A stretch of DNA of 64,000 bases from Bilabrum cf. latius (taxonomy: Eukaryota). Of this stretch, positions 1,705 to 43,406 are shown one piece after another. Each line of letters begins with the position of its first letter. The first letter of the stretch is position 1. Location: the NCBI GenBank assembly GCA_965178125.1, contig OZ237763.1:806001-870000 (forward strand), given 5' to 3'. The notes under the pieces are model-generated. The model made no database searches. It was not told the DNA's origin and worked only from the letters and a program-made list of their open reading frames with translations. Both the position numbers and the translations under genes were made by a program.

Positions 1705-1755
1705 AGCTCCAAGTTTGTCATTCGATGTCGGTTCGATTCATTTCAAGCAAGGGGT

Positions 1756-4700
1756 TTACTTCTTTTTCCCCTTCCCCTTCCCTTTCCCTTTCCCGCCAGC
1801 CCCACCCGCTGCACTCGTATCCGCCTGCAGCCCAGCATCCGCCCCTGGAGGCGCCTCCCCTGCCTGCAGATAGAAGATCCAGGGGGGCAGCCCCGCCCCC
1901 TCTCGCCCAGTAGCCCGAACCAACAGCTTACTGCTGGCCTCAGCCCGCCCCGCCCGCTGTGCCTCCTCGGCTCTCTCCGAGCAGCTCACCTCGATCCCCG
2001 AGGACTCCCTGGGCCCCAGCGAGAGGATGGCATCGTCCACGGCGAACAGGGGCGAGTCCAGCTCCAGAGAGAAGGACGCGTCCACAGAAAAGGGGGAGCG
2101 GAAAGGCACAGACACGGACCCCCCAGGCACCACGAAGAGCGGCCCCACCGGGCGGGGCGGCTCGCCGGTTCCCACCAGAGGCACCCGCACAGTCTCCCGG
2201 GGTACCTGTCCGCCGGACACCCGCAGCACCAGGGTCGCATGGGCCGGGCCGAGCCGAAAGGGGTAGAAAGACACGGGCACAGCGGCGGAGGCATCGCCCA
2301 GTGCGCCGACTGCCGCCCTGCCCTCTGGCACCGGCCTGGCCCCGAACTCGAGGGGCAGCTCCAGCGAGTCTCCGCCCTCGTCCCCGGCCCCCTCACCCAG
2401 CAAGAAGGCGTCTGCGTCGAGTCCTTCCACGCTGGCGAGCAACTTGAGCGAGCCAGAGGTGCCCGGGCCCACGTCTGGCCCCGCGGACCCCCGTATGTCC
2501 GCGGGGTGCAGGGCCCTGGCCCTGGCCCCCAGCGAGGCCTTGAGCTGGAGGGGTTTCTCCGAGGCAGGCACGGAGGCGAGCAGCTTGAGCACGTACCTGA
2601 AGCGCCCTAGCTGAGGGGATACAAGCACCATCTCAGTGTCCTGGGACTGCTCCCCGCCAGAGCCCGAGCTGGCCCCGTCCACGGCCGCGCCCTCAGCCCC
2701 GGCCCCGGCGGCAGCAGAGGCGCCCGCAGAGTCCGGCCGCAGGTGCAGTGGCGTGAACGTGACTCGGAATGGAATCTCGGCCTCGGAAGACGCAGCCCCA
2801 CCCGCTGCACCAGAGCCGGATACTCCCGCCCCCGCCCCCGCGCCGGCCAGCTGCTCGATCCTCACGAAGGGGTTCTCGCAGGTGACCTCGCTGAACTGCA
2901 CCTCCTCCTGGCCCTGGGCCTGCCCCATGCCCGCCAAAGGGTTGGGCACGGAGACGACCCTGGAGGCAGACTGCCGCAGCGCGGCACGCAGCCGCACCAC
3001 GCCCTGTGCCCCCGCCGGGCCGGTCCTGAGCAGCACCGGCTGTTCCACTACCTCGCCGCAGTCGTCGCCCGCCGTCTCGCAGACGAACCGCACCGAGAAG
3101 CCCAGCTCGCCCTCAAGGTGGTTCATCGCAGTCACCCGTACCTTGCGCACAGCCCCTGCCGACACTTCCACCGTGCGCGGGCAGTTGACAGTGGCAGTGG
3201 CAGGCAGGTCCTGCGGGCCCACCTGCACGCGGAACCTTCTCTGTCCCCTTGCCCAGTTGCTCAGAGGCACCATCACGGAGCACTGCGCCTTGGCCTGCGC
3301 CTCTGCCTCCAGTGCCGGCAGGGGCGCGGGCGGCCCGGCGGTGCCTCTCAGCGCCCTGGTCATGCCCCCCCCGTCCGGCAGCGCCACGAACAGCTCACCC
3401 TCGTGGAATGGAGGCCGGTGGGACGTGAGCGATCCCTCCACGGGGGGGAACAGGGAGGAGGAGGAGGAAGAGGCAGAGCCCTGGGCAGCAGCGGCGTCCT
3501 CCTTGCCCCTCCCCTTGCCCTTGGCTTTGCCTTTGCCTTTGTCTTTGCCCTTGCCGCCCTTGCCCTGGTCCTCCTGCTGCTCCTCCCCCTCTCCACCGGC
3601 AGGCACCGCCGTCTGGCTCAGGGGAGCGTACTCCACCTCAAGCTCGGGGACCTCCCCTGGCCGGGCCCTCACTTCGGCAGGTACCCTCCAGTGTGACGAG
3701 CTCACGGAGGGCCGGTACACCTGCGGCTCATCCGTCTCGTTCGCTGGCAGCGGAACCGTGAACTTGAACGGTTCGCCGCGCACGGATGCATTGCACTGCA
3801 GCACGTTCGCGTCGCTGGCGCCACCCTCCGCCTCGCCCGCTCCTCCCGCGGCTGCTCCACCAGCACCTCCCGCGGCAGGCCTGGGCACCGCGGTGGCCTG
3901 CAGCCGGATCCCCAACGGGTCGCAAGGAGTGCCGTCGGCCTCCTCAATCTGCACGTAACTCCCCGACTGCAGCTCCTCCTCGCCATCGGGGCCCAGCCCG
4001 CCCTCCCCCACAGGGGCTGCGCAGGTGAAGGCCAGCGGCTGCTCCTGACCCGGCCGCAGCGCCCCCTCCGGCGGAGAGCACGCAAACACACCGCCGAGAC
4101 CCTCCACGTCAACTCGGAATCGAATGGCCACGTCACCCCTGTTCCGCAGAGCCACCACCCGCCTCGCGGCAGACCCCCGCACCACCCGCCCGAAGCGCAC
4201 GTCCTCGTCAGTCACGTCCACCTCCACGCCCTCAGCACGGGCAGCCACCGTCAGGAGCGGCCTGCAGTCGCCCGAGGGCTCGCCCGCCTCAGCGCCGATG
4301 CCGCCGATAGACGACTGTGCCCCTGGCGAGGACGGCTGGCTGAAGCCTACTCCCATGCCTCTCCCTCCTTCGTCCTGGTCCTCGTCCTCGTCTCCGTCGT
4401 GGCCCAACACCCGGGCGAACAGGGGGGCAGAGAACGCACCCGCGCGCTGCTCGGGCCGGAAGTCGATCTGCACGTCCGCTGCCTGGCCCCTCCGCAGGGT
4501 GAGAAGCTCGGGCTCCCAGGCGACCCCCTGGGACCGCAAGCGGGGCGCCCCCCCGAGCGTGCCGTCCACCAGCCGGACCGACACTGTGGCCCGCCCGTGG
4601 TTGATCACCTGCACGCGGCGGCTGGCGCTGCCCCCGGCGCGCACTCCCGAGAACCGCACCCTCCGCTGGGAAGGATCCGCGAACTCGAGGCGCAGGGGCT

Positions 4701-7700
4701 CTGCAGAGGCCTCCAGCGGGATGGCGGGTCCTGCCGCGCGCCCGCCCACAGAGAGCAGGAGCCTGGCGCTGGCCGCCCCTGCCTCCCTGGGCACGTAAGA
4801 CACGGGCACCTCCACGATCTCCCCGGGACCCACCTCCACAGAGGAGAGGGGCAGCCGGAAGGGCAGGCCACCTCCTGGCAATCCTTCTGGCCCGCCCTCC
4901 GGCCCGGCGATGGCGAGGTCCACGGCCAGCGTGCGGTCCTCCTCCTCGCTGCCCAGCCGCAGCACCTGCGTGTGGCGCCTGGGGGCGGCGGACACCGACC
5001 GAGGCAGCACGCAGGTGCCCCAGTGCAGCGCCCGCGCGTGGGGCACCAGCCTGGGCACGCTTGTTCCCCCGGATAGAGGCACCATGTACGTGCTGCCCCC
5101 AGCCACCTCCAGCCGCAGCTGCAGGTCGGCAGCGTCCAGATCCACGGCCCCGGCCTCGGGCCCTTGGCCTCCGTGCACCGCCGGTGGGGGTGCAAACCTG
5201 ACCTTCACTCTAGCCGTCTCGCCCGCACCCACGGCGCCCCTGTCAGGCTCCACAGACACCGCCCCCAGGGCGAGGGACAGGATGCGCCCGATCGCCGCCC
5301 CGCTGAGACCCGATAGGCGGCCTCCTCCTCCCGACTGGCGGCCCCCACCTCCTCGCCCCCTCCGCTGAATGGTATCCAGCAGCTCCCGCGCGCCCCCCGG
5401 CGCCGCATCGAAGAGCACGACCTCCCCCCCGGGCCCCACCGTGGCCAGCCTGGCCTCGAAATGCAGAGACTGGGCCCCCTCGTTCCTCAGCTCCAGCTCC
5501 CTTGTTCCCTCGTCCCCGCCCTCCACCGCCCCCAGGCGCACATCCTCCGCCACCACGCCCCCCGTCGCGCTCTCGCCCAGGCGCCGGGCTGCCTCATGCC
5601 CCGCAGAAACGCCCAGGGCCGCCTGAGCAGCGCCCACGTCCACCGGCAGCAGCTCCGCATCGGGGTCTCCCTGCCCCGTGCCGCGCAGCACCACCCGCTC
5701 CTTGATCGCGAATGCGTCTCCCTTCACGTTAAGGTGCAGCGGGGTCACCCGCCGGCCCACCACGCACCGCAGCGTGGCGTTTGCCAGGCCGGCAGCCCTC
5801 GGCTGGAACCCCACGTCCACCTGCACGGACCCCCTCGCAGGGATGCTGCCCCGCCACGGGGACACGCTGATGCAACCGAACGGACCCACCCGCAGCACGG
5901 CCCCGCCCTGCTGCCCCTGTCCATGCCCCCCCTATCCTGCGGTAGCGGCAAGGCTCCTCGCTGCCCTTAGGCCCCCTCCCCCCGAGCCTCCCCCCGCCCC
6001 CTCCCCGCCCCCGGACTGACCCGGGGCCTCTATCCTGAAGGGCAGCGGCACGTCCTCGCCGTTGCGGATCTCCACGGTGCGTGACGAGTGCGCCCCTGCG
6101 AGCAGCCTGCCAAACCTGACGGAGGGCGGGAGAACAGCCACTGCTGGTTCCCTGGCGCGGCCCACCACCAGCACGGTGATCTCCAGCCGCTTCGAGGGCA
6201 CGGAAAACCGGAAGAACTACTCGCAGGCCTCCCCAATGGCATCGGGCTTAAAGGCGAACTGCAGCTCGATCTTCTGCCCCCCCGCCAGCTGGCCCCGCTG
6301 CGGGCCAGCCGACAGCGCCCCGGACCTCTGCCCCACCGGCTCAAGGGCGAACTGCCACCCCTCCGCGGATGGATTCAGCAGCTGGCAGACATGCCGCACT
6401 CCCGCCGCCCTGCCTATGCCCACGCTGTCCAAGACAAGCACCCGCGTGGACGCATCGATCGGAGTCCCGGGCAGCCCGTCCGCTCCCGGCAGCCCAGGAG
6501 GTCTCGAGGCCAGGTACGCGCTCGCCTGCGTGCTGTCCTGCGAGGGCAGCTCCAGGTGTGCCACTGGGCGCTGCCCCCTGCCCGCTGCCCGCACCACGCA
6601 TCCCGACGGCACGGCCGGGGCCACGGAGGGCAGCGATCCTGCGGGTGCGGGCAGCGAGGCAGCCCCGGGAGGCAGCCTGCCTGCCCCCAGAGCCAGCTGC
6701 AGATCAGCGGCCTCGTGGGCAGGGTACAGCGTCTGCACGCGGGGAGGGGCGCGGCTCCCGCCCTATTCATCTCCCTCTCCTTCGGACACTGTGCTCTTGG
6801 ACTCCTGCTCCCTTTTGCTCTCCTCCAGGCGGGAGGTCCCAGCCCCCGTGGACGGGGCCGCATCGGACGAGGCCAACGAGTCCCCTGCCCCAGCCCATGC
6901 CCCCGATCCTGACCCTAGTCCGGCATCAGCCCCGCCCACCTCCAGCCGCTGCAGGTCAATCTCGGCCACCACGTCGAACTCATAGTCGTCTGCCTCCAAG
7001 GGGGTGAAGCAAAGGGAGCCAGCAGAAGGCACCTCGGGGCCGGCCTTCGACTGCCCTCCTGCGCCTGCATCGTCCTCGTCCTCCCCCGACTTGCTCTCGG
7101 CTTTGCCTTTTCCCTTCCCTTTCCCCTTGTCCTTGCCCTTGTCCTTGCCTTTTGACTTGCCCTTATCGCCTGCCCCCGATGCATCCTCCTCGCCCTGCCG
7201 CTTGGGCTGCACCGCGGGCAGCAGCACGCCCACAGCGGGCCGGATCGCGAACGGGGACTGCGTCACGTCTGTCAGCTGCCGCGGCAGGGCGCCCGTCCGC
7301 CGCACCGTCTCCGCCGCTGTCCTCGCTCGCTGCCTTGACACGCCGGTGGGGATGTATCGGAATCGCACCGGCAGCGCCAGCCTGCCCCCCGAGGTCCCCT
7401 GCAGCGGTGCCACCCTAGTCTGGTACATGGGCGTGGGCCGGAAGACCGCGCGGGCCGGCCCCAGGCTCGGCTGAATGCGGTCCGCCTGCGCGCTGACGAG
7501 AAGCATGCGGGCCTGAGGCGCACTGGCTGCCTCCAACAGGGACCCCTCCTCCTCGGGCTACCCATCGCCCGCGCTCTCTCCCGCGGTACCGTTGGCCAGC
7601 ACCTCCCGCGGGTCGAAGGGTGCAGCCAACTGCACCGCGCCCTTCCCATCCCCGTCCTGCTGGGCCGCCAGCCACCTAGGCGCCCACAGCGGCTCGGGGC

Positions 7701-9328
7701 GCCCCTCCACCACCCGCAGCACCCCGCCCGATGAAGCGCCACTGCTCCTCGCCCTCCCCTCCTCCCACACACGCACCCTAGGCGGCACGCGGCAGCCGGT
7801 GCCTTCCTGTTCCTCAGCGGCAGCGGCGGCGCTCTTGGTCGCTGCATCCCTGGCCTGCTACTCCTCAGCGGCGGGGGCACCTCCCTCGGCGGCTGCCAGG
7901 GGCACCGCCCTCACGTTGGAGACGTCCGCGCTGCTCCACTGCACGCTGGGCTCATGCCAGGGGCCTGCCGGAGCCTCCGGACTGGCTGCTGCATCGCCGG
8001 CGCCTCCACTCGCAGACTTGACCTTGCCACCCTTGTCCTTGCCCTTCCCTTTCCCCTTATCCTTGCCCTTGCCGCCTTTGTCTTTCCCCTTGCCCCCTTT
8101 TTCCTTCCCCTTCCCCTTCCCCTTGTCCTTGCCCTTGCCTCCTGCGCCCTCCGCGCCCCCCTCACCGCCCCCCTCCTCATCCCCCCAACCAGATTGCGGC
8201 CCGTCGTCTCCCTCGGGCAGCACGCCCCCCGCGGGCTGACCCAGCCCGCCCACCGCCGCCCGCAGTGCCGCCTCCGCCGTCTCCTCCGAGGCCCCCTCGG
8301 CCGACCCCTCCTCACCAACGAAGGCCCGCACCAGGGCAGGGTGGTACGAGACGGGCACCCACACGAGTGGAAGCGGCCGACGCACCAGTCGCAAAGGATC
8401 CGCCACGCGAAGAACAAGCCGGACACGCCTGGAGGCACCCGCTGGCAGGTGGAACATGGCCGGGGTGGCGCGCACTGCACGGTGGGCGGGCCAAGCGCAC
8501 CGCATGGGGTAGCTGGCGGCATTGCGGACCACTACATCCGCCCGGGCTTCCACGCACGGCGGGCTGTTCCCCTCCGCGGCCAGCGATGCATCTGACAGCT
8601 CCGTCTCCCATTCCGCCCAGGTGCGTCGCCCCCCGTTGGGACCGCCCTCCTCGTCCTGCTCCGTCCCGCCGGCCGCAGTGGCAGCCGCAACCGATCTCCC
8701 ATCCGCGTCCCGGAGACCGTCGGGAGCGGCCTGCTGGCCCGCCCCCTGCGGTCCTGGGCCCAGCAGGACTGTGCCAAAGTCCAGCACGCCCTGGCTCGAG
8801 TCCTAGTCCTGGGCCTCGCTCCCTGCCTCGGTCCCAGTGTTAGCCCGAGCCCCCGCTGCACCTGCAGCAGCGGCGCACGCAGGCCGCGGCAAATCTTCCA
8901 GCCGCAGAGGTGGGGCCACTGCCCGCCCGCGCAGCACCACCCGATCGGACGCAAAGGGGTTGTGCGCCACGACGACTCGGAATCGCAAAGCTGTTCCCTG
9001 GAACGGCCCGACGCTGGTAGTGTCCTCGCCGCCGCCCTTGCCACCCTTGTCCTTGCCCTTGGCTTTCCCCTTGTCCTTGCCCTTTGCTTTCCCCTTGTCC
9101 TTGCCCTTTGCCCCGGACGCCCCGTCACCGCCTGCCTCCGCGTCGGCCCTGCTCCTGGCCCTCTGCAACCGCCCCTGCTCGGCCCAGAAGGCAGCCTCCT
9201 CCTCCGAGGGCGAGTAGGAGCACTGCACGCGGCGGCTCTCGCCCGGCTGCAGCGTCAGCGACTGCCCCGCGAGGGGAAACGCGAGCTGTGACGAGTGGAC
9301 CTGCGTCGATGGCCCGTACAGGGGAGGC

Positions 9329-9365
<37 letters not shown>

Positions 9366-10209
9366 TAGCCCCGCCCCCCTCACCCTCACTGCCCTCAGCC
9401 CCCTCATCGCCCTGCCTGTCGCCGCCACCCGGCGCACCAGCGCCTGCGCGGACACGCTCCAGGACGAAAGAAGCGGTGGCCGGGACATCTCCGTCGTTCC
9501 TGAGCTCCAGCTCGCGCGCCGCAGTGCGCTGCACCTCAAGACCCCCGAAGTCCACCAGCACCGCGCCCTCGGGATCCCTGCCGCCCAACCCACTCCGAGG
9601 GGCCAGCACGGACACCGTGGGCAGCGTGCCGTCTCCCTGGCACCTGAACTGCAGGGCCGCAGTCCCCGGGCTCGGGCCACCGCCCTGCACCAGCGCGCGC
9701 ACCCGGCAGCCGTAGGAGCGGACCGCGCGCGGGTGGAACGACACGGTGAAGTACCGGCTCTCGAACGGAGGCACTCGCAGCTCCTCACAGTCCAGTGTGA
9801 ACGCTTCCGCTGGCGTGGGAACTCCGTCCGCCGCGGCCTCACTGCCCGCCCCAGCGTCTCCGCCCGCGCCGTCGGGCGTCAGCTCCAGCCTGACGGAAGC
9901 CGGCACTTTGCCCGTGTTCGTGATCCTGACGCGCTCCTCCACGCCGCTGCTACTAACTGACGTGTAAATCACCTTTCCAAACGACAGCGTTCGCTCCCTT
10001 ACTCCAAACACGGCCCGCTGCTGCGCATCAGATCCCCCCCCACCGCTGGCCTGTCGAGCAGACTCAGAATCTGCAATCGATGGGACCACTGCTTGCTCCT
10101 CAAAAATTTGCTCCCAGTATGAGATGACCTTGGCCATACGGGCTGGCGTCGTCGGCAACTTCGACCCACCGCTCTTGTCTTGCCTCGGAGTGCCCGTCGT
10201 CGACGACAT
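1756..10209 (-). CDS. HYDIN: Hydin-like central-pair protein, C-terminal portion (~2,800 aa, repeated ASH/Ig-like domains)
   Basis: One frame from ATG 10209 to TAA 1756, broken only by TAG at 8803, 7858, 7558, 6763, 6217 and 5932. Hydin-like motifs include IFEEQAVV, LSFGKV..ITNTGKVPA, VPPFESRYFTVSFHP, QGDGTLPTV, FGRVVRGS..LRNRGDV and a terminal PWIFYLQ. Confidence 0.8.
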
Positions 10210-10385
10210 CCTCACCCAGCTCTCACAGAAATACTAAAGGGAATACCGGGAATTAGACGAAACCACCAGGTAATCAAATAGATCTTCAATCGAAAACCAA
10301 CAGAACGAGGCCACGCAACGCTGCAGATAGGGTAGATTTGCTATTGTTTCAGCTAGCCGTTTGCACACCGGGTTGCACTCGTCAC

Positions 10386-11223
10386 ATGACCCACTCCCTT
10401 CAAGAAGTTCCGCGGCGCCGGCGGCGCCCGCCGGTGACGGGGCTAGGCCGGGGCTTGCATTCTAGTCGTCTGACTTTTACTACGCAGAGTGCCGGTGGTT
10501 TCCCACCTCCACCCATCATCCCATGTATTGTGTTTAGTTGGCCCGCTGATTGGCCCGCCCCGGTCTGCGTGGCGTCGTGCCGGCGCTGGGCTCTAGCCGG
10601 GGCTTTTGCCGGGCAGGGGCCCCTGGTCGGAGGGTGCTCCCAGAACTACTAGAAGAGTGATGGGGGCTGGGAGATGGTGGGTGGAACAGATTATCTTGGA
10701 GAGGTCGTCTGTTTCAATACTACTTGCCTCTATTATTAGGTAAGAGTGGAACGAGTGGTCCGGCGCGCCCGTTGGGAGCAAGGTTTACGGCGCCCGTCTG
10801 TCACCTTCTATCGTCGCCGAAATCTCGCGGAAGTGGGCAAGTGTCCCATCCGCGTGCTCGCTCAGTTCCGGGAGAAAAACGACAGGGACGCGTTCAGCGA
10901 CCCGGAGTCGGCCAAGGCCCTGGGCGAGAAATTGCAGGCGGCCTGGTGAAAGCACGGGAGTGGACCACGGGTTCGTCAACGACCTGCTCCAGGAGGGCAT
11001 CGACATCAACCAGATGTCCGGTAGACCCACGGACCACGAGGCGGCCGAAGCGGCCATGGGCCGTGCACTGCTGGAGTGCTCCATCCCCGTGCTGATGCTT
11101 TTGAACCTGCAGCATGTGCCCCCACGGCGTGCCCACGGATCCCGCCGGCAAAATCGGGGCCATCACCTGCAACAAATAGGTAACGCTGTTGAATACAAAA
11201 CACGGTCCTATCTCTTGCCCTAA
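10386..11223 (+). pseudogene. Possible degenerate coding fragment of unknown family
   Basis: A protein-like frame (DGGWEMVGG...FREKNDRDAFSDPESAKALGEKLQAA, TAGs at 10650 and 10737) stops at TGA 10947. Protein-like text resumes in another frame (VDHGFVNDLLQEGIDINQM), and no clean intron joins them. Confidence 0.25.
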
Positions 11224-11434
11224 CAAACAAGGTCGGCACATCTGGGGCCCACGGCTTAGAAAGTGCAAAAAAGGTACTCCCACCGGGGCTCGATCCCGGG
11301 CTGGATCATTAGGAATGACCAGTGCTTCCACTACACTATAGGAGCTTGTTGTCGGCAGGAGGCGAATTTGACAATACAAATATCTTCCTGTTTTAGGGAT
11401 AGTTTCAAGACCTTTTTTCGAATGACACTTGCCA

Positions 11435-13396: not shown

Positions 13397-13543
13397 CTTG
13401 GTGAGTACGGGTCTGCAGCGCCGCGCGTTGCATTGCCAGCAGGCATGTCGTGGACGTTGGTGCACCCGTTTTCCGGAACGGTCTCCCAGAGGGTTGCATG
13501 GACTATATGAATGTAAAATCCCATAACAGACTGCCTTGTCGTC

Positions 13544-20050: not shown

Positions 20051-21322
20051 TCAGGTCGCGCCTCCCGCTGCGGCTCCCTCGTCTGCACCCCCACTGGCGC
20101 TGGACCCACTGGACCTGAGCTCGGCCGAGATCTCGTGCACAGCCTTGACGAAAGCCTGGAACTGCTCGGGCACATGCGTGGGCTGCATGCCCCACCCCAG
20201 GTTGGCGATCATGGGCTTGTCCCCGAACCCCTCTAGCATCTTCCTCACCTCACTACGGATCACAGCCTCGCCCCCGTAGAAGGCCCCCGGGTCCAGGTTC
20301 CCCTGCACCGCCGCCCGCCTGACCCGCCGCGCCCCCTCCGCCGGGTCGATGGTCCAGTCGAGGCTCACCACGTCGAACCGAGCGTCCTCCTCCTCCTCCC
20401 CATCGATCCACTCCAGGGCATAGTGCGCCCCCCTCGCGAAGAGAATCATGGGGGGTCCGCCCTCGGAAGGGGGTGGCACCCTAGCCCGCACCCCCTTCAC
20501 GATCCTCCTCAGGTGAGGCAGCACCGCCTCCTTGAAGAGACCGGGGGGCAGCTCGCCAGCGTTGCTCTCGAAGACTTGCAGGGCAGATGCGCCCGCCAGC
20601 CACTGGCCCACCAGCAGGTCGATGCACGTCTCAGCGATGGCACCCATCATGCGGCGGGCCGCATCGGGATGCCCGTATAGCCAGGTCTTGGCCACCGAGT
20701 GCGACTTGGAGCCGCCCCCTTCCGCCATGTAGGACAGAAGGGTCCACGGGCCACCGCAGAATCCCAGCACCGGGAGCTTGTTCTCTGTGATGCGAATCGT
20801 CTCCTTGATGGCGGCGTACAAAGGGGCAAACGTCTCTGATGCATCGGGCCGCATGCACAGCGGAGGCTCGCGCTTTGCGAGGTCGGCTGGCAGCCCAAGG
20901 GGGATCGGGAACACCGGGCCCTTGCCGGGAACCATCTTGCACTCCATGCCCATGGCCTGGGGCACGATGAGAATATCACTAAATATCACAAGGGCGTCAA
21001 TTGGGGCTCTGCGCATAGGCTGGGCCGTGATCTCTGCCGCGACGGACGGAGTACCGCACATGGCGAAGAAATCGTGCTCCTTGCGCACCTCCCGGAACTC
21101 CGGCAGGTACCGCCCCGCCTGGCGCATGCACCACACGGGACAGACATCAGTTTTCTTTCCGAGAGCGGCGTCCAGCAGACGCGTGTTGCTGGGCTTGTCC
21201 TGCTTCAAGCGAAGCTCGATGAGCTTATCCTCTCCAGCTGGAGGAGCGTACTCAGTACCAAGTTTCGAAGCCACGCTGCCGCCAGGGGCAACTGACTCAT
21301 CGATTGGTTCGCCTGATGCCAT
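20051..21322 (-). CDS. UROD: Uroporphyrinogen III decarboxylase
   Basis: PVWCMRQAGRYLPE, IFSDILIVPQAMG, GFCGGPWTLLSYMAEG, VQGNLDP and IANLGWG motifs; no internal TAG; ends TGA. Confidence 0.97.
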   Translation of the reverse strand: MASGEPIDESVAPGGSVASKLGTEYAPPAGEDKLIELRLKQDKPSNTRLLDAALGKKTDVCPVWCMRQAGRYLPEFREVRKEHDFFAMCGTPSVAAEITAQPMRRAPIDALVIFSDILIVPQAMGMECKMVPGKGPVFPIPLGLPADLAKREPPLCMRPDASETFAPLYAAIKETIRITENKLPVLGFCGGPWTLLSYMAEGGGSKSHSVAKTWLYGHPDAARRMMGAIAETCIDLLVGQWLAGASALQVFESNAGELPPGLFKEAVLPHLRRIVKGVRARVPPPSEGGPPMILFARGAHYALEWIDGEEEEDARFDVVSLDWTIDPAEGARRVRRAAVQGNLDPGAFYGGEAVIRSEVRKMLEGFGDKPMIANLGWGMQPTHVPEQFQAFVKAVHEISAELRSSGSSASGGADEGAAAGGAT

Positions 21323-21487
21323 GCTGTACGTTTTGCACTTGGTGGCGTGGCACAGCAGCGCATGGTTTCTCCAGCGGAGGTCCACTCGTCATCGTGCAAA
21401 GATACCCGGCAGTAGAATCATGCACAGACGTTCCGAGATGTAGCTTTGGCGATGAAAATGCCCGCGAATTGACTTAACCAAACGAAC

Positions 21488-24400: not shown

Positions 24401-25273
24401 GACAAGGTTGCAGCGGACACCCCGAGGAGCGACAAGAGCGGGGGCAGCGCTGGTGCTTCGACGCCCACTTCTTTGCCCATCGTCAGGCCTCAGCTGCTGC
24501 TGAGCGTGCTGGAGATCCACAATGAGAAGGTGCGAGACCTACTGGCGCCAAGGGGCCGCAAGGGGGCGGATTCGCTGGACTTGCGGGCCTCAAGAGATGG
24601 GGGCGTGAGGGCAGAGGGACTGACTCACGTGCGGGTCAGGAGCCAGAAGGAGGCCCAGGCGCTGCTGCTTCAGGCGGGCAGGCACAGGAGCGTGGGTGGG
24701 CACGACATGAACGCGCACTCGAGCCGGTCCCACCTAGTGGTGACCGCCACGCTGACGGTGCCTCGGCCCGGCGGCAAGGTGACGAGCTCCCGGCTGCACC
24801 TGGTCGACCTCGCGGGGTCGGAGAGGGTGCGCAAGACGGGGGCTGGCGGGGCTCGGCTCAAGGAGGCTCAGCACATCAACAAGAGCCTAAGCGCGCTGGG
24901 GAATGTGGTGGAGGCGCTGGCCTCGAGGCAGAGAGCGGCGGGGAGCGGCGGGTCTGCCTCGGGCGGGGGCGGGCACGTGCCGTTCCGGAACAGCAAGCTG
25001 ACGCACCTTCTGCAAGGGGCCCTCTCGGGGAACAGCAAGGTGCTCATGTTCGTGAACGCGTCGCCCAGCCTGTACAACGCGTCCGAGACGCTCTCGTCCC
25101 TCAAATTCGCGCTGCGGTGCAGGGCAGTCAGGCTTGGGGTGGCCCGGCGAGGTGTGCAGGACAAGTGGCAGGCAGAGGCCGAGATGCTGAGGAGGAGGGT
25201 GCGGGAGCTGGAGAGGCAGCTGGCGGCGGCTGGGGATGGGGCTGGGGCTGGGGCTAGGACGGGCGGGACTTGA
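21488..25273 (+). CDS. Kinesin-14 (C-terminal motor) with two N-terminal WW domains and a long coiled coil, ~1,260 aa
   Basis: Neck HNKVLELQGNIRVFARIRP, P-loop AYGQTGSGKT, NAHSSRSH, LVDLAGSER, HVPFRNSKLT. WW1 is WERHYDKA*RHYYWINTVTGDS*WE and WW2 is WQAVWSKSKQKVYYFNRET*KTSWEPP. One frame with 16 TAGs; ends TGA. Confidence 0.9.
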
Positions 25274-25400
25274 GCAAACAGCAGTGCATGCCCCACTTGA
25301 TACCCTGGATCCAGTGCATGATGATTCAAGCACGATCGGACTGGATACTGTCACATTTTATTACTCGAGATTTAAATCTAGAATCTTGATCCAGCTCAAG

Positions 25401-28400
25401 TCACGACCTCGCCCCTGACGAAGGCGCTTCCCCCCTGCCCCGTCTCTCCTGCTACACCGCGCGCAGGTGCCTGCCCAGCCCCGCCGCAGCATCCACGACC
25501 GGCCCATCCCTGGCCAATGAGCCGCCCATGGACTCGCCGGGCCTGCCCTATGGCGGCGGCCTGCCCTCCTCCCCAAGCACCCTCCGCTGGAGCTCTGCCA
25601 CGAAGAGAGCTCTGTCCTGCGGCTCCACGAAGGGAAGCATGGCCGCAGCAAGGGCGGGGCGGGGGGACAGAGCAGCTGCCGCGGTCTGCCAGAGGGCCTG
25701 CTGGGCTCCGTCCACAGCCTGGGGCCCCGCCCCCTCTGCGATCAACTGGTTCAGCCGGCGGGCAGCTGCTTCGACCCCCCTTGCCTGCGGGCTGGCCTCA
25801 CCAAAGGTCTGGCGTAGAGCACGCCAGAAGGTCACGGCATCCGTTGGAGTCAGCTGGGTCTGCTCGGCCGACTCTTGCTGCAAGCGAGCCATGCGGGCCT
25901 CTGCACGGGTGGGCCTGCGCGGGTGCGGCGGGTGGTGATGATGGTGGTGGCTCTACCCCTTCGCATCTGCCTGCTTGCCCTGCTGCCCCGCCGCCCCGCT
26001 CGCCCTGCCCAGCGGCCCCATCACCGGTGCGGGCTCCTCAGCAGTGGGAGCCAGCGCCAGTGCTTGAGCCACCACGGCTTCTGCTTGCCGGTCCGCTGCT
26101 TTGAGCACCGCAGCGCGATACCTCTCGGGGTCCTCGCCCTCAGGTGGCACGGCAGGGCCCAGTCTATCCCTGCCCCCGCTGCTGCTGGCCTTGCCACTGG
26201 ACGCACCGGCCCCAGTCCTGCCCGAGGCCCCGCTCCGCGCACGGGGATACGTGTGCTGGGCTGAGCCCGCCCCGGATGAGGCTCGAGAGGATGCCTGTTT
26301 CTGCACCGATCCAGCCGACTTGCCCCCTGCCAGCGCCACAGTGAACGGATCTGCAGCGGGTCCCTCGGCCCCCTTCACCGGCCGGCTGAACGCGATCACC
26401 CCCGCATCCGTCTCAGTCACCTTCCTGAGCTCCTCCAGCGCGCCCCACTAGCCCACGATGCCCCGCAGCAGCGCGGCCCTCTCTTGGACCCCTTTGCTGC
26501 CCGTGCTCCTTGCGGCCTTCTCCAGGGTATCCACGGGATCAACCGCCACTCGCACGGCGGGAGGCATGGCCGGGTAGGTCCCTGCCTTGGTGCCCATGGC
26601 CTGCCTGGCCACGCGCCGCCAGAACTCCTGCTCCCGCGCAGAGTTGCGCCCGTCCCCAACCCTTGGAGGCGGTGCTGCCAGCCCGGGCCCGTCGTGCGTC
26701 GCTGCATCCGTTCCATTGGCAGCAGGCAGCCCCGCTGGTATGGGCCAGGGCTCTCCTCCCGCACGAGCAGGCAGCAGCAGCCCAGTGCCACTCCCCGGCG
26801 GGGCACAGCCTTCCTCCACGAAGACCCCAGTGGAGGCCAGCCCGCGCCTGAGCTGCTCCTTGGCCTGCTCTGGAGACAGCCCATTCAGCTCCAGTTCAAG
26901 GTCTTGCTGAGGCTCCTCCTCCTCCTGCTCCTGACCCCCGCTACCCTCGCCCCCTTCCTCCTCCTCCGCATCGGCCACAGGGTCCGCTGCTCCCTCAGGT
27001 GGGGCAGGCACCACGGAGGCCAGCGCTGCCATGAGAGCAGAGGACCCGCGGGACTGACCCTCCTGCCCATCCTCCTCCATGAGCTCCTGACCCGCCCGCA
27101 GCACCTTGCGGCTGCCTGCCTTGCCTCCGCCCCTGCCCCTGCTCCTGCTCTTGCCCCCATCGCGGCCCGCCAAGACGCCCCGCCTTCGAAGCGCCCGACC
27201 GGCCTCCGCGTGAAATCGGAAGGATTCGGAGCCGTTGTGCGCCCCGCCCTGCATCTGTAGCGGGGGCGGGCAGCAGTCGAGGCACGTCCAGAACGGCTGC
27301 ATCCTAGCCAGCTCGAAGCGCACGTAGGACCTGCGAGTGCGGTACGTCTCCACATCCACGCGGAAGCAGCGCCCGCACACAGACCTCCTGCACGCGCTGA
27401 CAGAGCACCAGAGCAGCGCCCCTGTCTCGAACACGTCCAGGCACAGCGAGCACAGCGCCTGTCCCCGGCCCACGAACCAGGCCCCTGGCACCTTGCTGCT
27501 CAGCGACTGCATCGCAACTGCAGCGGCACCCTGCGCGCGAGCGGCGCGGGTGGCGGCACGTGCGCTGCGCCTGCGGCCCGGGCCTACGTGCATCTCCCCC
27601 GCGGCTGCCTCTGCATCCGCCTCGATGCGGGCCGTCTCGGCCTCTGCTCGCGCTCTCGCCGCTAGCTCCGTGGCCTCTCTGGCGGCCTGGTCCACTGGGC
27701 CCAGCCGCTGCTGCCTCCACCTCTTGCGCGCGTAGAAGAGGTGCACCACGTCCGTAGTGGGGCGGCCCAGCAGCGCAGCGACACGGTGAAACTCCTTGCC
27801 GTACTGTGTGACGAGCACTGCGAAGAGGTCGAGCTCGCCTTGCGACCATGGCCTGGGGGCGGGGCCCTCCCCCTCGTCCTCCTAGGGGTCCAGGGGGACA
27901 CCCCCGCGCTCGGGGTGGGGGCGGCGGTCAGCGCCCGGGGACCGCAGGGAGGCGGGCACGGCCGGGTCAGGCAGCCACGTGGCCTGGTACTCCCGCCCCA
28001 CCCTCGTGCGGCGGTACTTGTCCTCGTCCTCGCCAGCCGCTCGCATGCGCAGCTGCTGGGACGTGTCCGCGGCCGAGCCGGCTGGTGCTGCGGCTGGGGC
28101 TGGAGCTGCGGCTGGGGCTGGAGCTGGGGCTGGTGCTGGTGATGGTGCTGGTGCTTGGGTGGTTGCAGCTGTGCCAGGGTCTGCTGCATCCGGTCCGGCC
28201 TGATCGTCGCTAGCCATGGGGGCAGAGGAGGCAGAGGCAGCAGACTCTGCGTGACCTGGCGCGGGGTCGCCCTCTCCGTCCTCCATGGCAGCCTGTGCAG
28301 ATGGCATCTCACCCTCCCCCTCCTTGCCCTCGTTCGCTGGACCATCTGAACCATCCTCCTTGCCCCCGTTCGCTGGACCATCTGAACCATCCTCCTTGCC

Positions 28401-29639
28401 CTCGCCCCCACTATCCTCACCGCTTGAGTCCTCCAGCAAATCCCGGAGCATGGGCTCCACGTGATCCCGGAGCCCAGGCACCCTCAGCAGCCCCTCTGCC
28501 TGACTCGCCCACCCCGTCACGTTGTCAGTGACAGGGGGCAGCGGGACCGCCAGCACGTCCGACTGGCGCCCCGCCACAGCCTGGGTGAGGGCAGCAGCGG
28601 CTCGCAGGTGCGTGTGGTCCGCCGAAGCCATGATGCGGGCTGCGTCCTCCTCGGGGATGGGCCGCACGCTGAGCAGCCTGGGCTCGATGGTCCCAGCGCA
28701 GCCCACCGACGGCAGCTCGGGTAGGCTCGGGGGCACCACCGGGGGCTCGCTCTCATCTGGTGGGGGATCCTCAGAGCGAAATTCTTGCGGGACGTCTTCA
28801 GCTAGCAACGCCTGTAGGGGCACAAGAGCCCGGCGGTGGCGCCGTGGCAGCACCACGGTGCCCTGAGGCCCGGTAAAGAATCCGACAGCGGCAGCGCCAG
28901 CCAAGTGCGGCATCTTGCTTTCGCTGTCATCGCTACCGCTGGCCGTGGCTTTGCTCCCATGTGTGTTGGGTTTGGCTGCAGGCGTGACCACGGCAAGCTT
29001 CACAGGTCCGACAACTGTCGATAGCGGGATGCAATCTCGTTCGTACGACAGAACGACGCTAGTTCGCGCTCGCTGCTTCTTAGCAGATCCATTCTTGCCA
29101 GCTCCTGATTTCTGATCTTTGGCAGGGAGCGCTAGAATTTCTGTCGCCTCGTCGGTTGCTTTACCCTCTAGGTCAACGAGCGTCTGCTCCGCCTCGAGCA
29201 CCGCCCGGACAAAATCTGCTGCCTCCCCGGACACCTTATTTCCCAGCGATGCGGAATACGCGGATGCCGACTCTTGCTGCGATTTTGGCTACAATAGACC
29301 TCCGCGAACAGCTGAATGTGCCTGTACTGCAAGAATCCCGAGCGCTTCCTCAGTAGTAGGAAGCCATCGGACCTTGGCTGCCATGACTTCCCCGCGTTGC
29401 ACAAGGGATTCAATGAGCGCAAATGAGGTCGGTCGTTTGCTTCCTTCGCTTGATTGGGTTCGAACGCTCGCTGCAACGGCTCCATCGGGGCCAGGCACGC
29501 CGCCCTTGCTATCGATCCTGCGGACCTCGATGGCATCCCCGACCGCTATCAACGTAGACCCAGCTTGAGCTGCCCAATACTCGATCTCACTGCGGCGGCC
29601 TCTTGCTAGTCGAACCTCCCCTGCCCATTCAAACGCCAT
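25401..29639 (-). CDS. Chromatin protein with BAH-like, ELM2-like, SANT/Myb and PHD/ADD-like zinc finger regions
   Basis: IAVGDAIEV..FALIESL..AKVRWL (BAH-like), TRVGREYQA (ELM2-like), WSQGELDLFAVLVTQYGKEFHRVA (SANT), CSLC..LLWC..C..VCGRC..WTCLDC. TAGs at 29289, 27882, 26448, 25953, 25548 and 25452; TGA 25401. The start is uncertain because the frame is also open to ATG 29849. Confidence 0.7.
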
Positions 29640-29958
29640 CCTGGTGTCCCACTACTCGCTTTGCACGAGCCCACACCCGCCTGGTGCTAGTGTGTAGTTG
29701 TGCGGCTGACCGATTGAGTCGGGCTCTAGTTGCCTAGCGTTACCTCTGCAAAAGCGCTACAAGTAGTTCAAGCAGCAACGGCTCGACAGACACCCCTGGG
29801 AAACCCCCGTCCCTCCCAAGCTTTCAAGGTGCTGTGCACCTTTCCTCATCCAGTCACCTCGTTCCCTCGGTTGTAACCATTATTCGAAGATGAAGATTAA
29901 TCATGTCCTTCATCACCCCAAAGTGAGCCCCTATCCCAAACGAATCTGGACAGATCTG

Positions 29959-31884
29959 ATGGACGCATTGGCTTTTGCAGGGCTGAGTGGGGCTGCGGCG
30001 TTCTTCCTCCAAAAATTGCACGCATACAGACTCCGTCGGTCTGCTCGACGAAATGGATCGATCGGAGCAGTTTCAAGCAACGAAGTCTTAGTGCATGCGG
30101 TTGAAGAAGGAAGGCTGCCGCACACCGTGCTTTTGTCGTGCAAGCTACTTGTGACGATGCCGTCACATCGCTATGCGATTGCGGCATGTAGCGGCTCCAC
30201 GGATGGACCAGAACCCTTGTCTACAACCACGGGAGCCGCCGCCAACCGATTTGGCGACACGCATATCGACGATTTGGAGCTTTGGAAAAAATTGAAGGTC
30301 CACCGTGTCCCATTTGTTGAACTGGATTGGCGTAGTGCTGCTGAGCTGACGAGAAGGGGTGAATTGGATTGGGCTGGAGTGCGCCAGGCCATGGTTCGAA
30401 GCACTTGGGACTACTCAGAATCGCCGGAGGTTTCGCAACAGTTTACAGCTTTCTTGCGCGAGTTGGAAACAGGACATGCTGTTACTGTTGCTAATTCTTC
30501 CGCTCTTGTGGACTGGAATTGCGACAAATCCAAGTACATTCCAGCACTAGCAGCAGCCGGGGTTCGAACGGTGCCAGTGCTGCCGCTTCGACCCACGTCA
30601 GCGGCTACGAAAAGTATAGAGGCAGGGTTCTCCCCTGCTGAGCGGCGAGTGAGCAGTCTGATCCAGTCCAATGAGAGGCTTACCAAGCGCGGTGTCGTGG
30701 TGAAGCCAGCGATTGGGGGGGGCTCCAGGGGGGTGGTGTTGGTGCGCCGCGAGGATGGAGGTACCGTGACACTGGCAGAAAAGAGCAGCCTGGGGCCCGA
30801 GGGCTCCGGCAGTCTGGATGGGGATGCGCTGAGCCATGCCGATGCCCTTGCCGCGCTCTCTGGAGGTGCCACCCCCTTGCCCGAGGAAGAGGCCCGCTGG
30901 CCAGAGGAGGCGAGGGCGTGCCCTCGGCTGGATCGGAGGGAGGCCTGTGGGGAGGCAGCGGGGGATGAGGAAGAGCCCGAGGCAGGGGTAGCAGTGCCCC
31001 CCTCGGTGTGGGTCTGGCTTGCTGGCAGCAGTGGGGACGAGGCTACGATAGGTGCTGGTGCTGGTGCTGGTGCTGGTGCTGGTGCTGGTGCTGGTGCTGG
31101 TGCTGGTGCTGGTGCTGGTGCTGGTGCTGGTGCTGGTGCTGGTGCTGGTGCTGGTGCTGGTGCTGGTGCTGGTGCTGGTGCTGGTGCTGGTGCTGGTGCT
31201 GGTGCTGGTGCTGGTGCTGGTGCTGGTGCTGGTGCTGGTGCTGGTGTAGGCGGAGGGTACGTCGTCCCGAGACTGTCCTCGCAGGTGGTGCGCATATCGA
31301 TCGGCGATTGGAGCGGGCAGTGGTCAGGTCGCACTGAGACTCTACTCGTCAGTCCGCTCTGGCCGACAGTGGCCACTCACGGCGAGCGCACGGTTATCTT
31401 GGTCATGGACGATGTGCTCTGGCTCGCCCAACCCATCGGCGATCCGGCGTACCGGGTAACCCACAGTTTTGCCAAGCTGCCTGGCTCTCGAGAGGACGTG
31501 CGGGTGCAGGCGGAATTTGGGGGCTTCGAGCGGCCCTACCCAGTGGACCCCGAGGAGGAGCGGCTGGCTAGGCTGGCTGTCTCGGTGGCGGCCAGAGCTG
31601 CGGCTGCAGGTCGAGGCAGGCCCAGGCCGGAATGGCCCTGGTTCGCCCGCGTGGACATGCTTGTGGACCCTGACAGCGAGGAGGGGCTGCCGGCTATCCT
31701 GGAGCTGGAGCTCATCGAGCCATCTCTCTTCTTTGGGCTGCAGGGAACTCGGGCGGTTGAGGAGTGCAGTGGCAATGTGACCGGAGCGGCGGAGGGGCGG
31801 CGGGATGGCGCCACTGGGGGGAAGCAAACAGTCGAGGCTCTATCGAATCTATTGTGTAGGCTCGCCGTGCCGTGTCCGGTGTGA
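29959..31884 (+). CDS. ATP-grasp ligase of the RimK/GshB-like, DcsG-related type, with an internal (Gly-Ala)32 insert
   Basis: RSTWDY, WNCDKSKY, VVKPAIGGGS, DVRVQAEFGG, FARVD and ELELIEPSLF motifs; ends TGA. Alternative upstream ATG at 29890. Confidence 0.8.
   Translation: MDALAFAGLSGAAAFFLQKLHAYRLRRSARRNGSIGAVSSNEVLVHAVEEGRLPHTVLLSCKLLVTMPSHRYAIAACSGSTDGPEPLSTTTGAAANRFGDTHIDDLELWKKLKVHRVPFVELDWRSAAELTRRGELDWAGVRQAMVRSTWDYSESPEVSQQFTAFLRELETGHAVTVANSSALVDWNCDKSKYIPALAAAGVRTVPVLPLRPTSAATKSIEAGFSPAERRVSSLIQSNERLTKRGVVVKPAIGGGSRGVVLVRREDGGTVTLAEKSSLGPEGSGSLDGDALSHADALAALSGGATPLPEEEARWPEEARACPRLDRREACGEAAGDEEEPEAGVAVPPSVWVWLAGSSGDEATIGAGAGAGAGAGAGAGAGAGAGAGAGAGAGAGAGAGAGAGAGAGAGAGAGAGAGAGAGAGAGAGAGVGGGYVVPRLSSQVVRISIGDWSGQWSGRTETLLVSPLWPTVATHGERTVILVMDDVLWLAQPIGDPAYRVTHSFAKLPGSREDVRVQAEFGGFERPYPVDPEEERLARLAVSVAARAAAAGRGRPRPEWPWFARVDMLVDPDSEEGLPAILELELIEPSLFFGLQGTRAVEECSGNVTGAAEGRRDGATGGKQTVEALSNLLCRLAVPCPV
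31051..31242 (+). repeat. Perfect (GGTGCT)32 coding microsatellite
   Basis: 192 bp of uninterrupted GGTGCT in the ATP-grasp reading frame. Confidence 0.98.
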
Positions 31885-31940
31885 ACAAAAGCAACAAATG
31901 CAGGTGTGCATCATGATCCTATCAATTTGCAGCATTGTAC

Positions 31941-34900
31941 TTACGTGCGGGCTCTCTTCTTGGCTCGCCCAGCGGCCTTGGCGCCCTTCTTCGACCTGGA
32001 GGCAGCCCGGGGCCGCTTGCTGCCGGGCTCAGCAGCCTCACCTTCTTCCTCCTCTTCCCCCTCCTCGTCCTGCTCCTCCTCCTCGTCATCCTCCTGATCC
32101 CCAGCCGCCTCAGAGGTGGCCTTGCCCTTCTTCCGTCCTCCACTCTTGCCAGCGGCCGCCTTGCCCTTGCCCTTCGCCTTGCCCTTCTCCTTGTTCTACG
32201 ATCCCTTGGGCCTCCCCTTGCGCTGCTTGGTGGGTTTGTACTCCTCCCCCCGCAACTCGCAGTTCTCCTTCTCTACCAACGCGATCAGCTGGTCACACCT
32301 CCGCCTAAGCTCCTGCGTGGTGCGGCTCTTGATGAACCAGTCGAACCGAAACATGGGCGCCCGGCGCACTTCCTGCTGCATGCGGTCCCACCGACCGTAC
32401 CCGAGGGCGTTCAGCATGCACAGCAAGAAGCGGTCTTCCTCCTCGTTGAAGCCCTTCGTGGGCTTGCCCGAGCCCCCGTATGGCACCTGCAGCTGCAGAA
32501 AGGGGTTCCCGTATCTGTGTACCTTCCAGGCCACCTCCCTCTCCACGTCGTCCCTCCTCTGGATCTTGCCCTCGCCCTTGGCGATCTTCACCTCAAGCTT
32601 CTTCCAGTCCTCCAGCTCCACGCAGCGACCCCCCATAAAGTCTCGCTTGGCCGGATCCCACTCGCCCCAGAACGCCGTGAAGTACCGCGCCACCTCACTG
32701 GGCTCCTTGCCGGTGGCCGTTGAAACCTCGGCGATGATGGCCCGACGCGCCCGCCTCCCGTGCCTCTCGCACGCGGACATGAAGGCACGGAAGTCGCGCC
32801 TGGTCCACGACCTGAAGCCCTCGGCCAGCAGCTTCTCCTTCTCTTCCTCCTCATCCTTCGGCAGCACCAGCTTCTCCAGCGCAGCGCGCAGACGGGCCGC
32901 TCCGACGCCCTTGGCCGCCCTCTCTGCCTTCCTGCCCTCTAAGTCAGCCTCGACCGAGTCGTTGATGTCCTCGTCGATGCGCTGCCGGCCCCTCCTCTTC
33001 TTGAGCAGCTTGGCCTCGAGGGTCTTGAGGTCGGACTCATCGCCCTCGCCCTCGTCCTCATCCTCATCACCGTCTGCGTCACCGTCCTCGTCACCGTCCT
33101 CCTCGTCCTCGTCTTCGTCTGCCGCAGCCTTCATCGGCTCGCTAGCACCGGCACCAGATGCAGCCGGCGCAGGTGCAGCAACACTGCTGCTCGAGGCAGC
33201 CGCGCCTGACGATGCTGCAGAGCTGGCGGTTGCCACATCGCTGTCAGCAGCGGCGCTCGAGGCCGACGCATCTCCCTGGCCCCCAGGCCCCTGCCTCTCC
33301 AGCTCTTCCGGGTCCATGGTCATGACCTCGAGGTCACCGTCTTGCAGCGCAGCGGTGTTTGCCGCCCGACCCATGATTACGATCTGGCCTGAAGAGGGTT
33401 CGATGCCCTGCGCCACCATCTTGGCGCGCACCTCGGCGAGCTTGGCCGCCCTCCGCTCGTTCATCTGGCGGTCCTTGCGCCTTCGAGCCCAACGGCGGTC
33501 CATCTTGTTCTCCTCCTGCTCCACCTCCTTGAGCTCTGCCTTGATCTCGCGGCGGGCCAGCAGCAGGTCGTTCTGCTTCTCCACGATCTCCATGATGCGC
33601 TTCCGGTTGAAGAACTGGAAATCCATCATCTGCGGGGGCTTGTACAGTCGAGGTTTCCCGCGGGGGGCAGTAGGCTTGCCGTCCGCTCCTGCTCCGCTTC
33701 CCCCGTGCATCACGTCAGAGTAGTACTGGTCAATATCGTAGTTGCGCTTCCGCTCGCGCTGGGGCAGGTTGATCAGCATGCCCACGTCCATGCCCGCTGC
33801 GGCCAGCCCGCGCTTGCCTCTGCCCCTGCCCGGCTTTGGCTTCTGGTCCGCAAAGTCCTACCCGCCCCAGATGTAGATGCTCATGTCGCCCTTGCTGTCA
33901 TCCATGGAGTAATTCTGCAGCGTGTGCTGCATGTCCCTCTAGATCTTTGCCTTGTCCTCCGAGGTGCGCTCCTCCCCCTTGCGCAGGATCGCGTCGATGT
34001 CCTCGTCCGTGATGCCGTCAGAGCCACCCGACCGGAAGATCTCGTCCGCGCCGAATCGCACCATGTTGGCCAGCTCCCCGCGGGACAGACCCTTCTCCTT
34101 CTGCGCGAGGCGGCCCTGCTGGATGACCAGTGCGTCCAGGTACAGCTTGCGCTCGGCTCGCTCCACAATCTTCTCCTCCACCGTCTGCTCCGTCACCAGC
34201 CGGAACACCCTCACCACGTTCTTCTGCCCGATTCTGTGCGCCCTGTCCATGGCTTGCAGGTCCATCTGAGGGTTCCAGTCGCTGTCGTAGATGATGACGG
34301 TGTCGGCCGAGGCGAGGTTGATCCCTAGTCCGCCGGCCCTCGTGGACAGCAGGAAGATGAACTTGTCGCTGTCTGGAGCGTTGAACCCCTCAATCATTTT
34401 GTCGCGGTCAAGGCCGTGGGTGTTGCCGTCGATCCGGCAGTAGTTGTAGCCCACGTGCCTGCAGTAGTCCTCGAAAATGTCCAGCATCCTGGTCATCTGC
34501 GAGAAGAGCAGCACCCTGTGCTTGCCAGCCTTGAGCTTGACCAGGAGGCGGTGCAGAAGGTTCATCTTGCCGCTGTTCTCCCACAGGTGGGGGCCTTCCT
34601 CGAAGGGAGGCCCCGGCTCGGCGCCGTCGAAGAGGTACGGGTGGTTGCAGCACTTCCTCAGCTGCATGAGGATGTTGAGCAGCCGCACCTTGTCGGCACC
34701 GCCCACCTGGTTCAGCGAGGCAGCGTCCTTGGACAGCAGCTTGCGGTACCACTCGTTCTGCATCTTGGTGAGGCCCACGAACAGCTTGGTTTCGATCTTG
34801 GGCGGCAGCTCTTTGGCCACGTCCTTCTTGACCCTCCTGAGCATGAAAGGCTTGAGAATCGCGTGCAGCTTGCCCACGGCGTTCTTCTCGACGGCCTGCT

Positions 34901-43286: not shown

Positions 43287-43406
43287 TTTCAGTGTCTTGT
43301 GTTTTGACTGTAAAGAATGCGCATGCTATTGATGGTCGGTTTAGAAAATCCAGGTACAAGGTTGCTGTTCAGGCGCCATTGCGTTGGACAAGGTGATCAG
43401 ATCAGG

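Follow-up and report, generated by a model that had tools for sequence, protein, structure and literature searches.

Can UAA remain a stop codon in a genome that reads UAG as an amino acid? The question is raised by a 64-kb stretch of contig OZ237763.1 (positions 806,001 to 870,000 of the forward strand, here called the window), which has a G+C content of about 64% and carries long open reading frames (ORFs), tightly packed on both strands, that contain in-frame TAG codons. These frames were drawn with TAA and TGA alone as stops, are 900–2,900 codons in length and were identified by Pfam, and the codon counts for coding sequences start at the first ATG and comprise 14 coding sequences with 16,423 codons. 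The window very probably comes from the GC-rich, gene-dense nuclear genome of a flagellated eukaryote that uses the genetic code of NCBI table 15, with UAG read as glutamine (Gln) and both UAA and UGA as stop codons.

Within the 14 coding sequences, TAG was found 89, 91 and 85 times in frames 0, 1 and 2, respectively, and thus showed no in-frame avoidance. TAA was detected 69 times out of frame and never in frame (0, 28 and 41 in frames 0, 1 and 2), and TGA followed the same pattern (0, 226 and 308), with the frame-0 zeros for TAA and TGA being partly built in, as the ORFs are bounded by these two codons. UGA was not used as a sense codon and terminated 14 of the 16 genes for which an end was assigned, with the other two ending at TAA. 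Frames with homologues were full length: ISWI could be aligned to solved ISWI chains from its N-terminal region to at most 6 residues from the end of a 1052-residue chain, the SMC4 alignment spans both head domains, and the kinesin motor covers profile positions 1–326 of 327, which indicates that no gene was split at a hidden TAA. An earlier reading of the letters alone had reported no internal in-frame TAA in any gene, and this was borne out over all 16,423 codons; in the window genes, UAA does not serve as a sense codon.

The high GC content does not explain the lack of in-frame TAA. The ratio of A-ending to G-ending codons in the window genes was 0.163 for CAA/CAG (95:584), 0.233 for AAA/AAG and 0.191 for GAA/GAG, and if TAA was synonymous with TAG, of which there are 89, the window should contain approximately 14.5 TAA. 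A second estimate was obtained from a metagenome contig (L001) that has the same gene order as the window, with DNA 67–77% identical where aligned and protein identities of 81% for ISWI and 67% for a calpain-like protein. The GC bias of L001 is weaker (CAA:CAG 29:70), and its 25 TAG in 3,006 codons give an expectation of 10.4 TAA, with 0 observed. Fisher's exact test on CAA:CAG versus TAA:TAG gave p = 3.6e-6 for the window (95:584 versus 0:89), p = 5.3e-4 for L001 and p = 1.1e-8 for the pooled counts. The caveat that high GC makes TAA rare, raised when the sequence was first read, is answered by these counts, as about 25 TAA were expected in the window and L001 together and none was seen.

Both genes that end at TAA lie on the minus strand, and the features on which their ends depend are as follows.

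1756–10209, minus strand (open frame 1756–10476): coding sequence of a CFAP65/hydin-family flagellar protein, without TAA and with 6 in-frame TAG counted from the first ATG; Pfam PF24507 (E = 1.7e-27), PF22544 and PF15780.
1756–1758, minus strand: TAA taken as the stop of the CFAP65/hydin-family gene, closing a frame of 2,818 codons that has no earlier TAA or TGA.
1738–1740, minus strand: next in-frame TGA past this TAA, the 6th codon on, which would be the frame end under TAA readthrough.
31941–36157, minus strand (open frame 31941–36251): main exon of ISWI, with 7 in-frame TAG and no TAA; Pfam SNF2-rel_dom (E = 7.4e-99), SLIDE and HAND; PDB ISWI chains, E = 6.6e-279.
35985, 35853, 35535, 35223, 33939, 33858 and 32196, minus strand: low coordinates of the in-frame TAG codons of ISWI.
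31941–31943, minus strand: TAA taken as the ISWI stop, read directly from the sequence.
31911–31913, minus strand: next in-frame TGA past the ISWI TAA, the 10th codon on.

On the minus strand, the CFAP65/hydin-family gene ends with ...GGG AAA AAG AAG TAA ACC CCT TGC TTG AAA TGA, and ISWI with ...GCC CGC ACG TAA GTA CAA TGC TGC AAA TTG ATA GGA TCA TGA. The sequence-only reading had placed both TAA gene ends, and the in-frame TGA 6 and 10 codons further on, at exactly these coordinates. It had also named the first gene Hydin; the end at TAA stands, and the name has been revised, as the best score was with the CFAP65 immunoglobulin (Ig) models, next to an Ig model shared by HYDIN, CFAP65 and VesB, and the product would be better called a CFAP65/hydin-family flagellar protein.

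Two lines of evidence suggest that translation stops at these codons. The first is their position, since the chance that two random sense codons would both lie so near the ends of their frames (6 and 10 codons, in frames of 2,818 and 1,413 codons) is approximately 1.5e-5. The second is codon composition, expressed as the log-odds of coding versus non-coding (LLR) and trained on the window. The 5 codons following the CFAP65/hydin-family TAA had an LLR of -5.15, which is in the lowest 0.59% of coding stretches and is matched or exceeded by 80% of non-coding stretches, and the 9 codons following the ISWI TAA had an LLR of -11.96, which is in the lowest 0.02% of coding stretches and is matched or exceeded by 89% of non-coding ones. 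Codons immediately 5′ of each TAA had scores normal for coding sequence. When the 9 codons past TGA stops were scored as a control, 9 of the 12 genes came out below the 8th percentile. In L001, conservation of the ISWI tail extends beyond the last TAG to approximately 13 residues short of the TAA, and the L001 gene located between ISWI and calpain ends at TGA, as it does in the window. No further relatives for comparison of the gene ends were found when genome contigs were scanned with the C-terminus of the CFAP65-family protein and viral contigs with that of ISWI. Contigs from public sequencing runs end 38 bases past the ISWI TAA, 40 bases past the calpain TGA and 56 bases past the TGA of an ABC-class ATPase gene, and as contigs cannot show RNA ends, these were given no weight. 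The evidence that UAA terminates these two genes is indirect but consistent, and the proposal that UAA still functions as a stop while UAG is a sense codon is supported by the complete absence of in-frame TAA, the non-coding composition past both TAA and the positional chance given above. The last two also soften the earlier warning that two cases do not prove the point.

The assignment of UAG to Gln, an assumption of the sequence-only reading, is well supported. TAG codons are located inside conserved domains of ISWI, SMC4, the ABC-class ATPase, BBS7 and kinesin. The orthologous ISWI and calpain genes of the window and L001 were compared at TAG sites with a local identity of at least 0.5 (n = 20 sites, with 5 poorly aligned sites dropped), and the partner codon was CAG at 10 sites, CAA at 2, TAG at 2 and another codon at 6 (GTG twice; TCC, CTA, GCG and CAC once each), which amounts to replacement by CAG or CAA at 12/20 sites. 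For the 7 ISWI TAG codons of the window, L001 has CAG or CAA at 4, TAG at 2 and TCT at 1. The L001 ISWI gene (6665–10837) itself has 10 in-frame TAG, of which just 2 are at positions of the window's 7, and this small overlap suggests that TAG and CAG interchange freely, as synonymous codons would. More distant homologues point in the same direction, with column odds summed over 13 TAG sites in four families being 7.5 bits for Gln, 4.7 for lysine (Lys), 2.8 for alanine and negative for all other residues. The column of SMC4 TAG site 896 has Gln in 67/120 homologues, and BBS7 site 844 has Gln in 53/119 homologues and in a database relative (P0361). A database protein with 96% identity to the ABC-class ATPase (P0241) has Gln at both TAG sites, and the three TAG sites spanned by these two database relatives thus all have Gln (3/3). 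In the gene at 46028–48745, a 51-base unit is repeated six times in tandem (47565–47872) with one in-frame TAG per unit, consistent with amplification of a 17-residue, Gln-containing repeat in which TAG served as the Gln codon. Finally, a contig of sequencing run X5 that skips the intron at 37091–37194 retains the TAG at 37209–37211 unchanged, and contigs of runs X5, X7 and X8 are identical to ISWI (0 differing letters) across 4–5 of its 7 TAG codons, which makes RNA editing or assembly error unlikely.

Several observations weigh against this reading of the two codons. For genes lacking homologues, finding no TAA within the frames is partly circular, since the ORFs were bounded by TAA and TGA. 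Only two genes end at TAA, both in Lys-rich tails and neither with a fixed, alignable C-terminus, and the L001 contig breaks off a few codons short of the ISWI stop, leaving the orthologous stop outside the comparison. The composition test failed to flag 3/12 true TGA ends, and is therefore useful rather than sharp. With regard to UAG, columns of distant homologues do not by themselves separate Gln from Lys (7.5 versus 4.7 bits), one strongly conserved SMC4 TAG column consists of Lys in 82, Arg in 30 and Gln in 2 of 120 homologues, and TAG may already have been translated as Gln by the gene caller that produced P0241.

The other genes identified in the window, to which the alternative explanations also apply, are listed below; the window has further genes without a family match in Pfam.

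20051–21322, minus strand (open frame 20051–21388): coding sequence of uroporphyrinogen decarboxylase (UROD), without TAG, TGA end; Pfam URO-D, E = 7.9e-107.
21488–25273, plus strand (open frame 21473–25273): coding sequence of a kinesin-14-like motor, 16 in-frame TAG, TGA end; Pfam Kinesin (E = 2.1e-91) and WW.
25401–29849, minus strand: gene without Pfam match (unk25401), 8 in-frame TAG, TGA end.
38712–43286, plus strand (open frame 38628–43286): calpain-like gene, exon after the 38624–38711 intron, 5 in-frame TAG, TGA end; Pfam Peptidase_C2.
43407–45296, minus strand (open frame 43407–45674): coding sequence of the ABC-class ATPase, 2 in-frame TAG, TGA end; Pfam PF09818, E = 3e-118.
46028–48709, minus strand (frame 46028–48745): coding sequence of a gene of unknown family (unk46028), 14 in-frame TAG, 6 of these in the 51-base tandem repeat, TGA end.
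48973–53133, plus strand (open frame 48937–53133): coding sequence of SMC4, 5 in-frame TAG, TGA end; Pfam SMC_N and SMC_hinge; PDB SMC4, E = 1.7e-229.
53231–57835, minus strand (open frame 53231–57868): coding sequence of a PH-domain gene, 17 in-frame TAG, TGA end; Pfam PH.
58319–61174, plus strand: large exon of BBS7, 3 in-frame TAG, TGA end; Pfam BBS7 domains.

It may be asked whether UAG has a dual role of the Condylostoma or Blastocrithidia type, being Gln within genes and a context-dependent stop near some gene ends, with UAA and UGA as stops too. We consider this unlikely. It draws on four of 13 genes having a TAG no more than 17 codons from the frame end, where approximately 1.2 would be expected:

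53095–53097: SMC4, 12 codons before the frame end.
61136–61138: BBS7, 12 codons before the frame end.
46076–46078: unk46028, 16 codons before the frame end.
25452–25454: unk25401, 17 codons before the frame end.

The composition past the last TAG is ambiguous in SMC4 and unk46028, but it is coding-like in unk25401 and in the PH-domain gene and leans towards coding in BBS7, and the part of the ISWI tail that follows the last TAG is, as described above, conserved in L001. No window gene has to end at TAG, and the excess of late TAG is small, with a Poisson chance that we estimate at approximately 3%. The late TAG codons hint, if weakly, that TAG may still serve as the stop of some genes.

It is very unlikely that UAA is unassigned or nearly unused, that is, neither decoded nor efficiently recognised by the release factor eRF1, with termination at UAA being leaky or slow and UGA the sole efficient stop. 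Such a state would account for TAA being present at just 2/16 gene ends and for the backup TGA within 10 codons of both. However, a 2:14 split also fits a working but disfavoured stop at approximately 64% GC, and a second stop nearby is ordinary in the non-coding DNA of the window, where a TGA or TAA was found within 9 codons of the stop in 5/12 TGA-ended genes. Ribosomes would furthermore stall if the frames of a chromatin remodeller and a flagellar protein closed with an unassigned codon.

Reassignment of UAA to Gln along with UAG, as in NCBI table 6, would require that in-frame TAA is rare through GC richness and that both genes end at the downstream TGA, and we regard this as extremely improbable. 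The G+C content at third codon positions (GC3) is 0.56–0.84 across the window genes, which disfavours A-ending codons, and an in-frame TGA does follow closely behind both TAA, but the ratios given above show that A-ending two-fold codons are not that rare, and the deficit of TAA remains significant when both terminal TAA are counted as sense codons (Fisher's exact test, p = 2.6e-4). Both TAA are moreover located at the extreme ends of their frames and are followed by non-coding-like codons, and the window and L001 orthologues do not contain a single pair in which CAA or CAG is matched by TAA. A standard code, with the in-frame TAG explained by pseudogenes, assembly errors or RNA editing to CAG rather than by translation of TAG itself, has nothing in its favour beyond the general rarity of variant codes and is of negligible probability given 14 long frames that are open for TAA and TGA yet have 89 TAG, the TAG present in the same genes of L001, partly elsewhere and swapping with CAG, the letter-for-letter agreement of independent runs and the TAG retained in the intron-skipping contig.

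If the window is read with the table 15 code, UAG alone would be decoded by a tRNA-Gln with a CUA anticodon, as known cases and wobble rules suggest; a UUA anticodon, unlike CUA, would read both UAA and UAG. This follows the wobble argument as set out in PMC11687900, in which the CUA anticodon pairs with UAG only and UUA with both codons. In addition, eRF1 would have lost or weakened its recognition of UAG, and kept that of UAA and UGA. No suppressor tRNA was detected in the window, where tRNA-Arg(CCT) is the only tRNA, or in L001, which has no tRNA, and the eRF1 gene is not in the 64-kb window. The dominance of UGA, with UAA being rare yet excluded from coding, points to the decoding side as the origin of the uncoupling, with a CUA tRNA unable to read UAA combined with the specificity of eRF1. 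The tRNA-Arg(CCT) gene (11273–11345, minus strand) is the sole RNA gene detected in the window.

The same codon table, with UAG as Gln and UAA and UGA as stops, has been described for the nuclear code of the fornicate Iotanema spirale (Panek et al. 2017, PMC5304391), and UAG and UAA are uncoupled in both. Unlike Iotanema, the organism of the window is GC-rich and aerobic-looking, as it has the haem-synthesis gene UROD, and its best matches are stramenopiles rather than metamonads; its stop usage, to be set against that of Iotanema, is 14/16 for UGA and 2/16 for UAA. Codes with UAG as Gln and UAA as stop are also reported for the phyllopharyngean ciliates Hartmannula sinica and Trochilia petrani, and for Protocruzia tuzeti (McGowan et al. 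2024, PMC11687900). These belong to the same table 15 type and use UAG widely as a sense codon. According to the same report, UAA ends 86.9–98.3% of genes in those ciliates, and its authors argue that use on this scale keeps UAA locked as a stop (PMC11687900). UAA is the dominant stop in the ciliates, whereas in the window it is a minor stop and UGA is dominant, and the argument of heavy use consequently does not explain why UAA has remained without an amino acid here. Nothing ciliate-like was found in the window, with the top ISWI and SMC4 matches being stramenopiles.

Other uncoupled codes listed in these sources are those of the rhizarian exLh (UAG = Leu), Scotinosphaera (UAG = Ser) and the ciliate PL0344 (UAA = Lys and UAG = Glu) (PMC11687900; PMC5304391). 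Their amino acids fit poorly here, with column scores of -38.0 for Leu, -10.2 for Ser and -19.0 for Glu versus +7.5 for Gln, and with the orthologues swapping TAG for CAG and CAA. A code of the table 6 type is found in some ulvophytes (dasycladalean). The same type, with both UAA and UAG as Gln, is described for many ciliates and for hexamitid diplomonads (PMC5304391); UAG is Gln there as it is here, and the use of UAA as a sense codon was tested in the window and not encountered. Going by the accounts in these two papers, nuclear codes that split UAG from UAA have been found in under a dozen lineages (PMC5304391; PMC11687900). A full-text search in a collection with few subscription journals found no paper describing a code with UAG as Gln and UAA as stop in a stramenopile or comparable flagellate. 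The type of code is thus already known, and its presence in this lineage, where at least one diverged relative shares it, has apparently gone unreported.

The best database matches were with stramenopiles (oomycetes, diatoms and other ochrophytes), with identities of 57–65% for ISWI and 39–43% for SMC4. In a tree of SMC4 (24 rows, quick method), the window is on a long branch adjoining another long branch, which did not resolve its placement. Since L001 shares the code, the code would be older than the split between the two. Tentatively, and with slightly less than an even chance of being right, we propose that an undescribed lineage of GC-rich, gene-dense flagellates, with stramenopiles as best matches and including an L001-like relative, evolved UAG as Gln with UAA and UGA as stops on its own. 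DNA of positions 30000–39999 recurs, partly without difference, in sequencing runs X1–X8, which come from several studies and carry at least four coded organism labels, and small shares of it are also present in runs labelled protist and algae metagenome. The organism may often accompany other cultures or samples.

Contigs from public runs bridged four GT..AG gaps, at 36158–36255, 37091–37194, 38624–38711 and 45553–45677. One of these is the 5′ intron of ISWI, given below.

36158–36255, minus strand: ISWI 5′ intron; contigs of runs X5, X7 and X8 join 36157 to 36256; ends CT..AC on the plus strand.

Introns were short (88–125 bases), of the GT..AG type and all close to the 5′ ends of genes, which otherwise consist of single long exons. 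An additional BBS7 intron at approximately 58250–58318 is suggested by a conserved N-terminal exon upstream of a gap containing in-frame TAG, TAA and TGA. The first in-frame ATGs of the ISWI and calpain frames fall within introns, which places the true starts elsewhere. Convergent gene pairs have stop-to-stop gaps of 56 (31885–31940), 127 (25274–25400), 120 (43287–43406) and 147 bases (13397–13543), so that 3′ untranslated regions must be very short or overlapping.

Low-complexity runs rich in Lys and glycine (KGKGKGK, KDKGKGKGK) are present as inserts in the CFAP65-family protein (1756–10476) and in the ISWI tail (31941–32200), with a similar run in frame 1–1545. A 74-base tandem repeat in 3 copies (1483–1706) is located immediately downstream of the CFAP65-family stop. 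Near the other end of the window, a perfect telomere-type tract of (TTAGGG) x 47 (63083–63364) is preceded by a 43-base repeat (61227–61512) and four copies of a 339-base repeat (61724–63081), and is followed by a 155-base tandem repeat with at least 3.7 copies (63425–64000) that reaches the window end. Two readings fit this tract: an interstitial array of telomeric repeats within a subtelomere, or a chromosome end at which the assembly was joined. The frame at 61688–63370, with 45 apparent TAG, was rejected as a gene, as it consists of the (TTAGGG)n tract and the 339-base tandem repeat, and was left out of all counts.

The code has direct consequences for annotation, as use of the standard code fragments nearly every long gene. 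One database protein (P0418) is identical to residues 860–939 of the window BBS7, ending right before the TAG at position 940. Annotation with table 6 would also be wrong, since both TAA-ended genes would run past their stops. Uncoupled codes indicate that the translation machinery can tell UAG from UAA, and a GC-rich, non-ciliate case is probably a further independent origin. If the proposal of an independent lineage is true, this would be the first such code outside ciliates and metamonads, and the first with UGA rather than UAA as the main terminator. UAA would then remain a stop codon although few genes depend on it, which puts to the test the view that UAA is shielded from following UAG by its heavy use as a stop.

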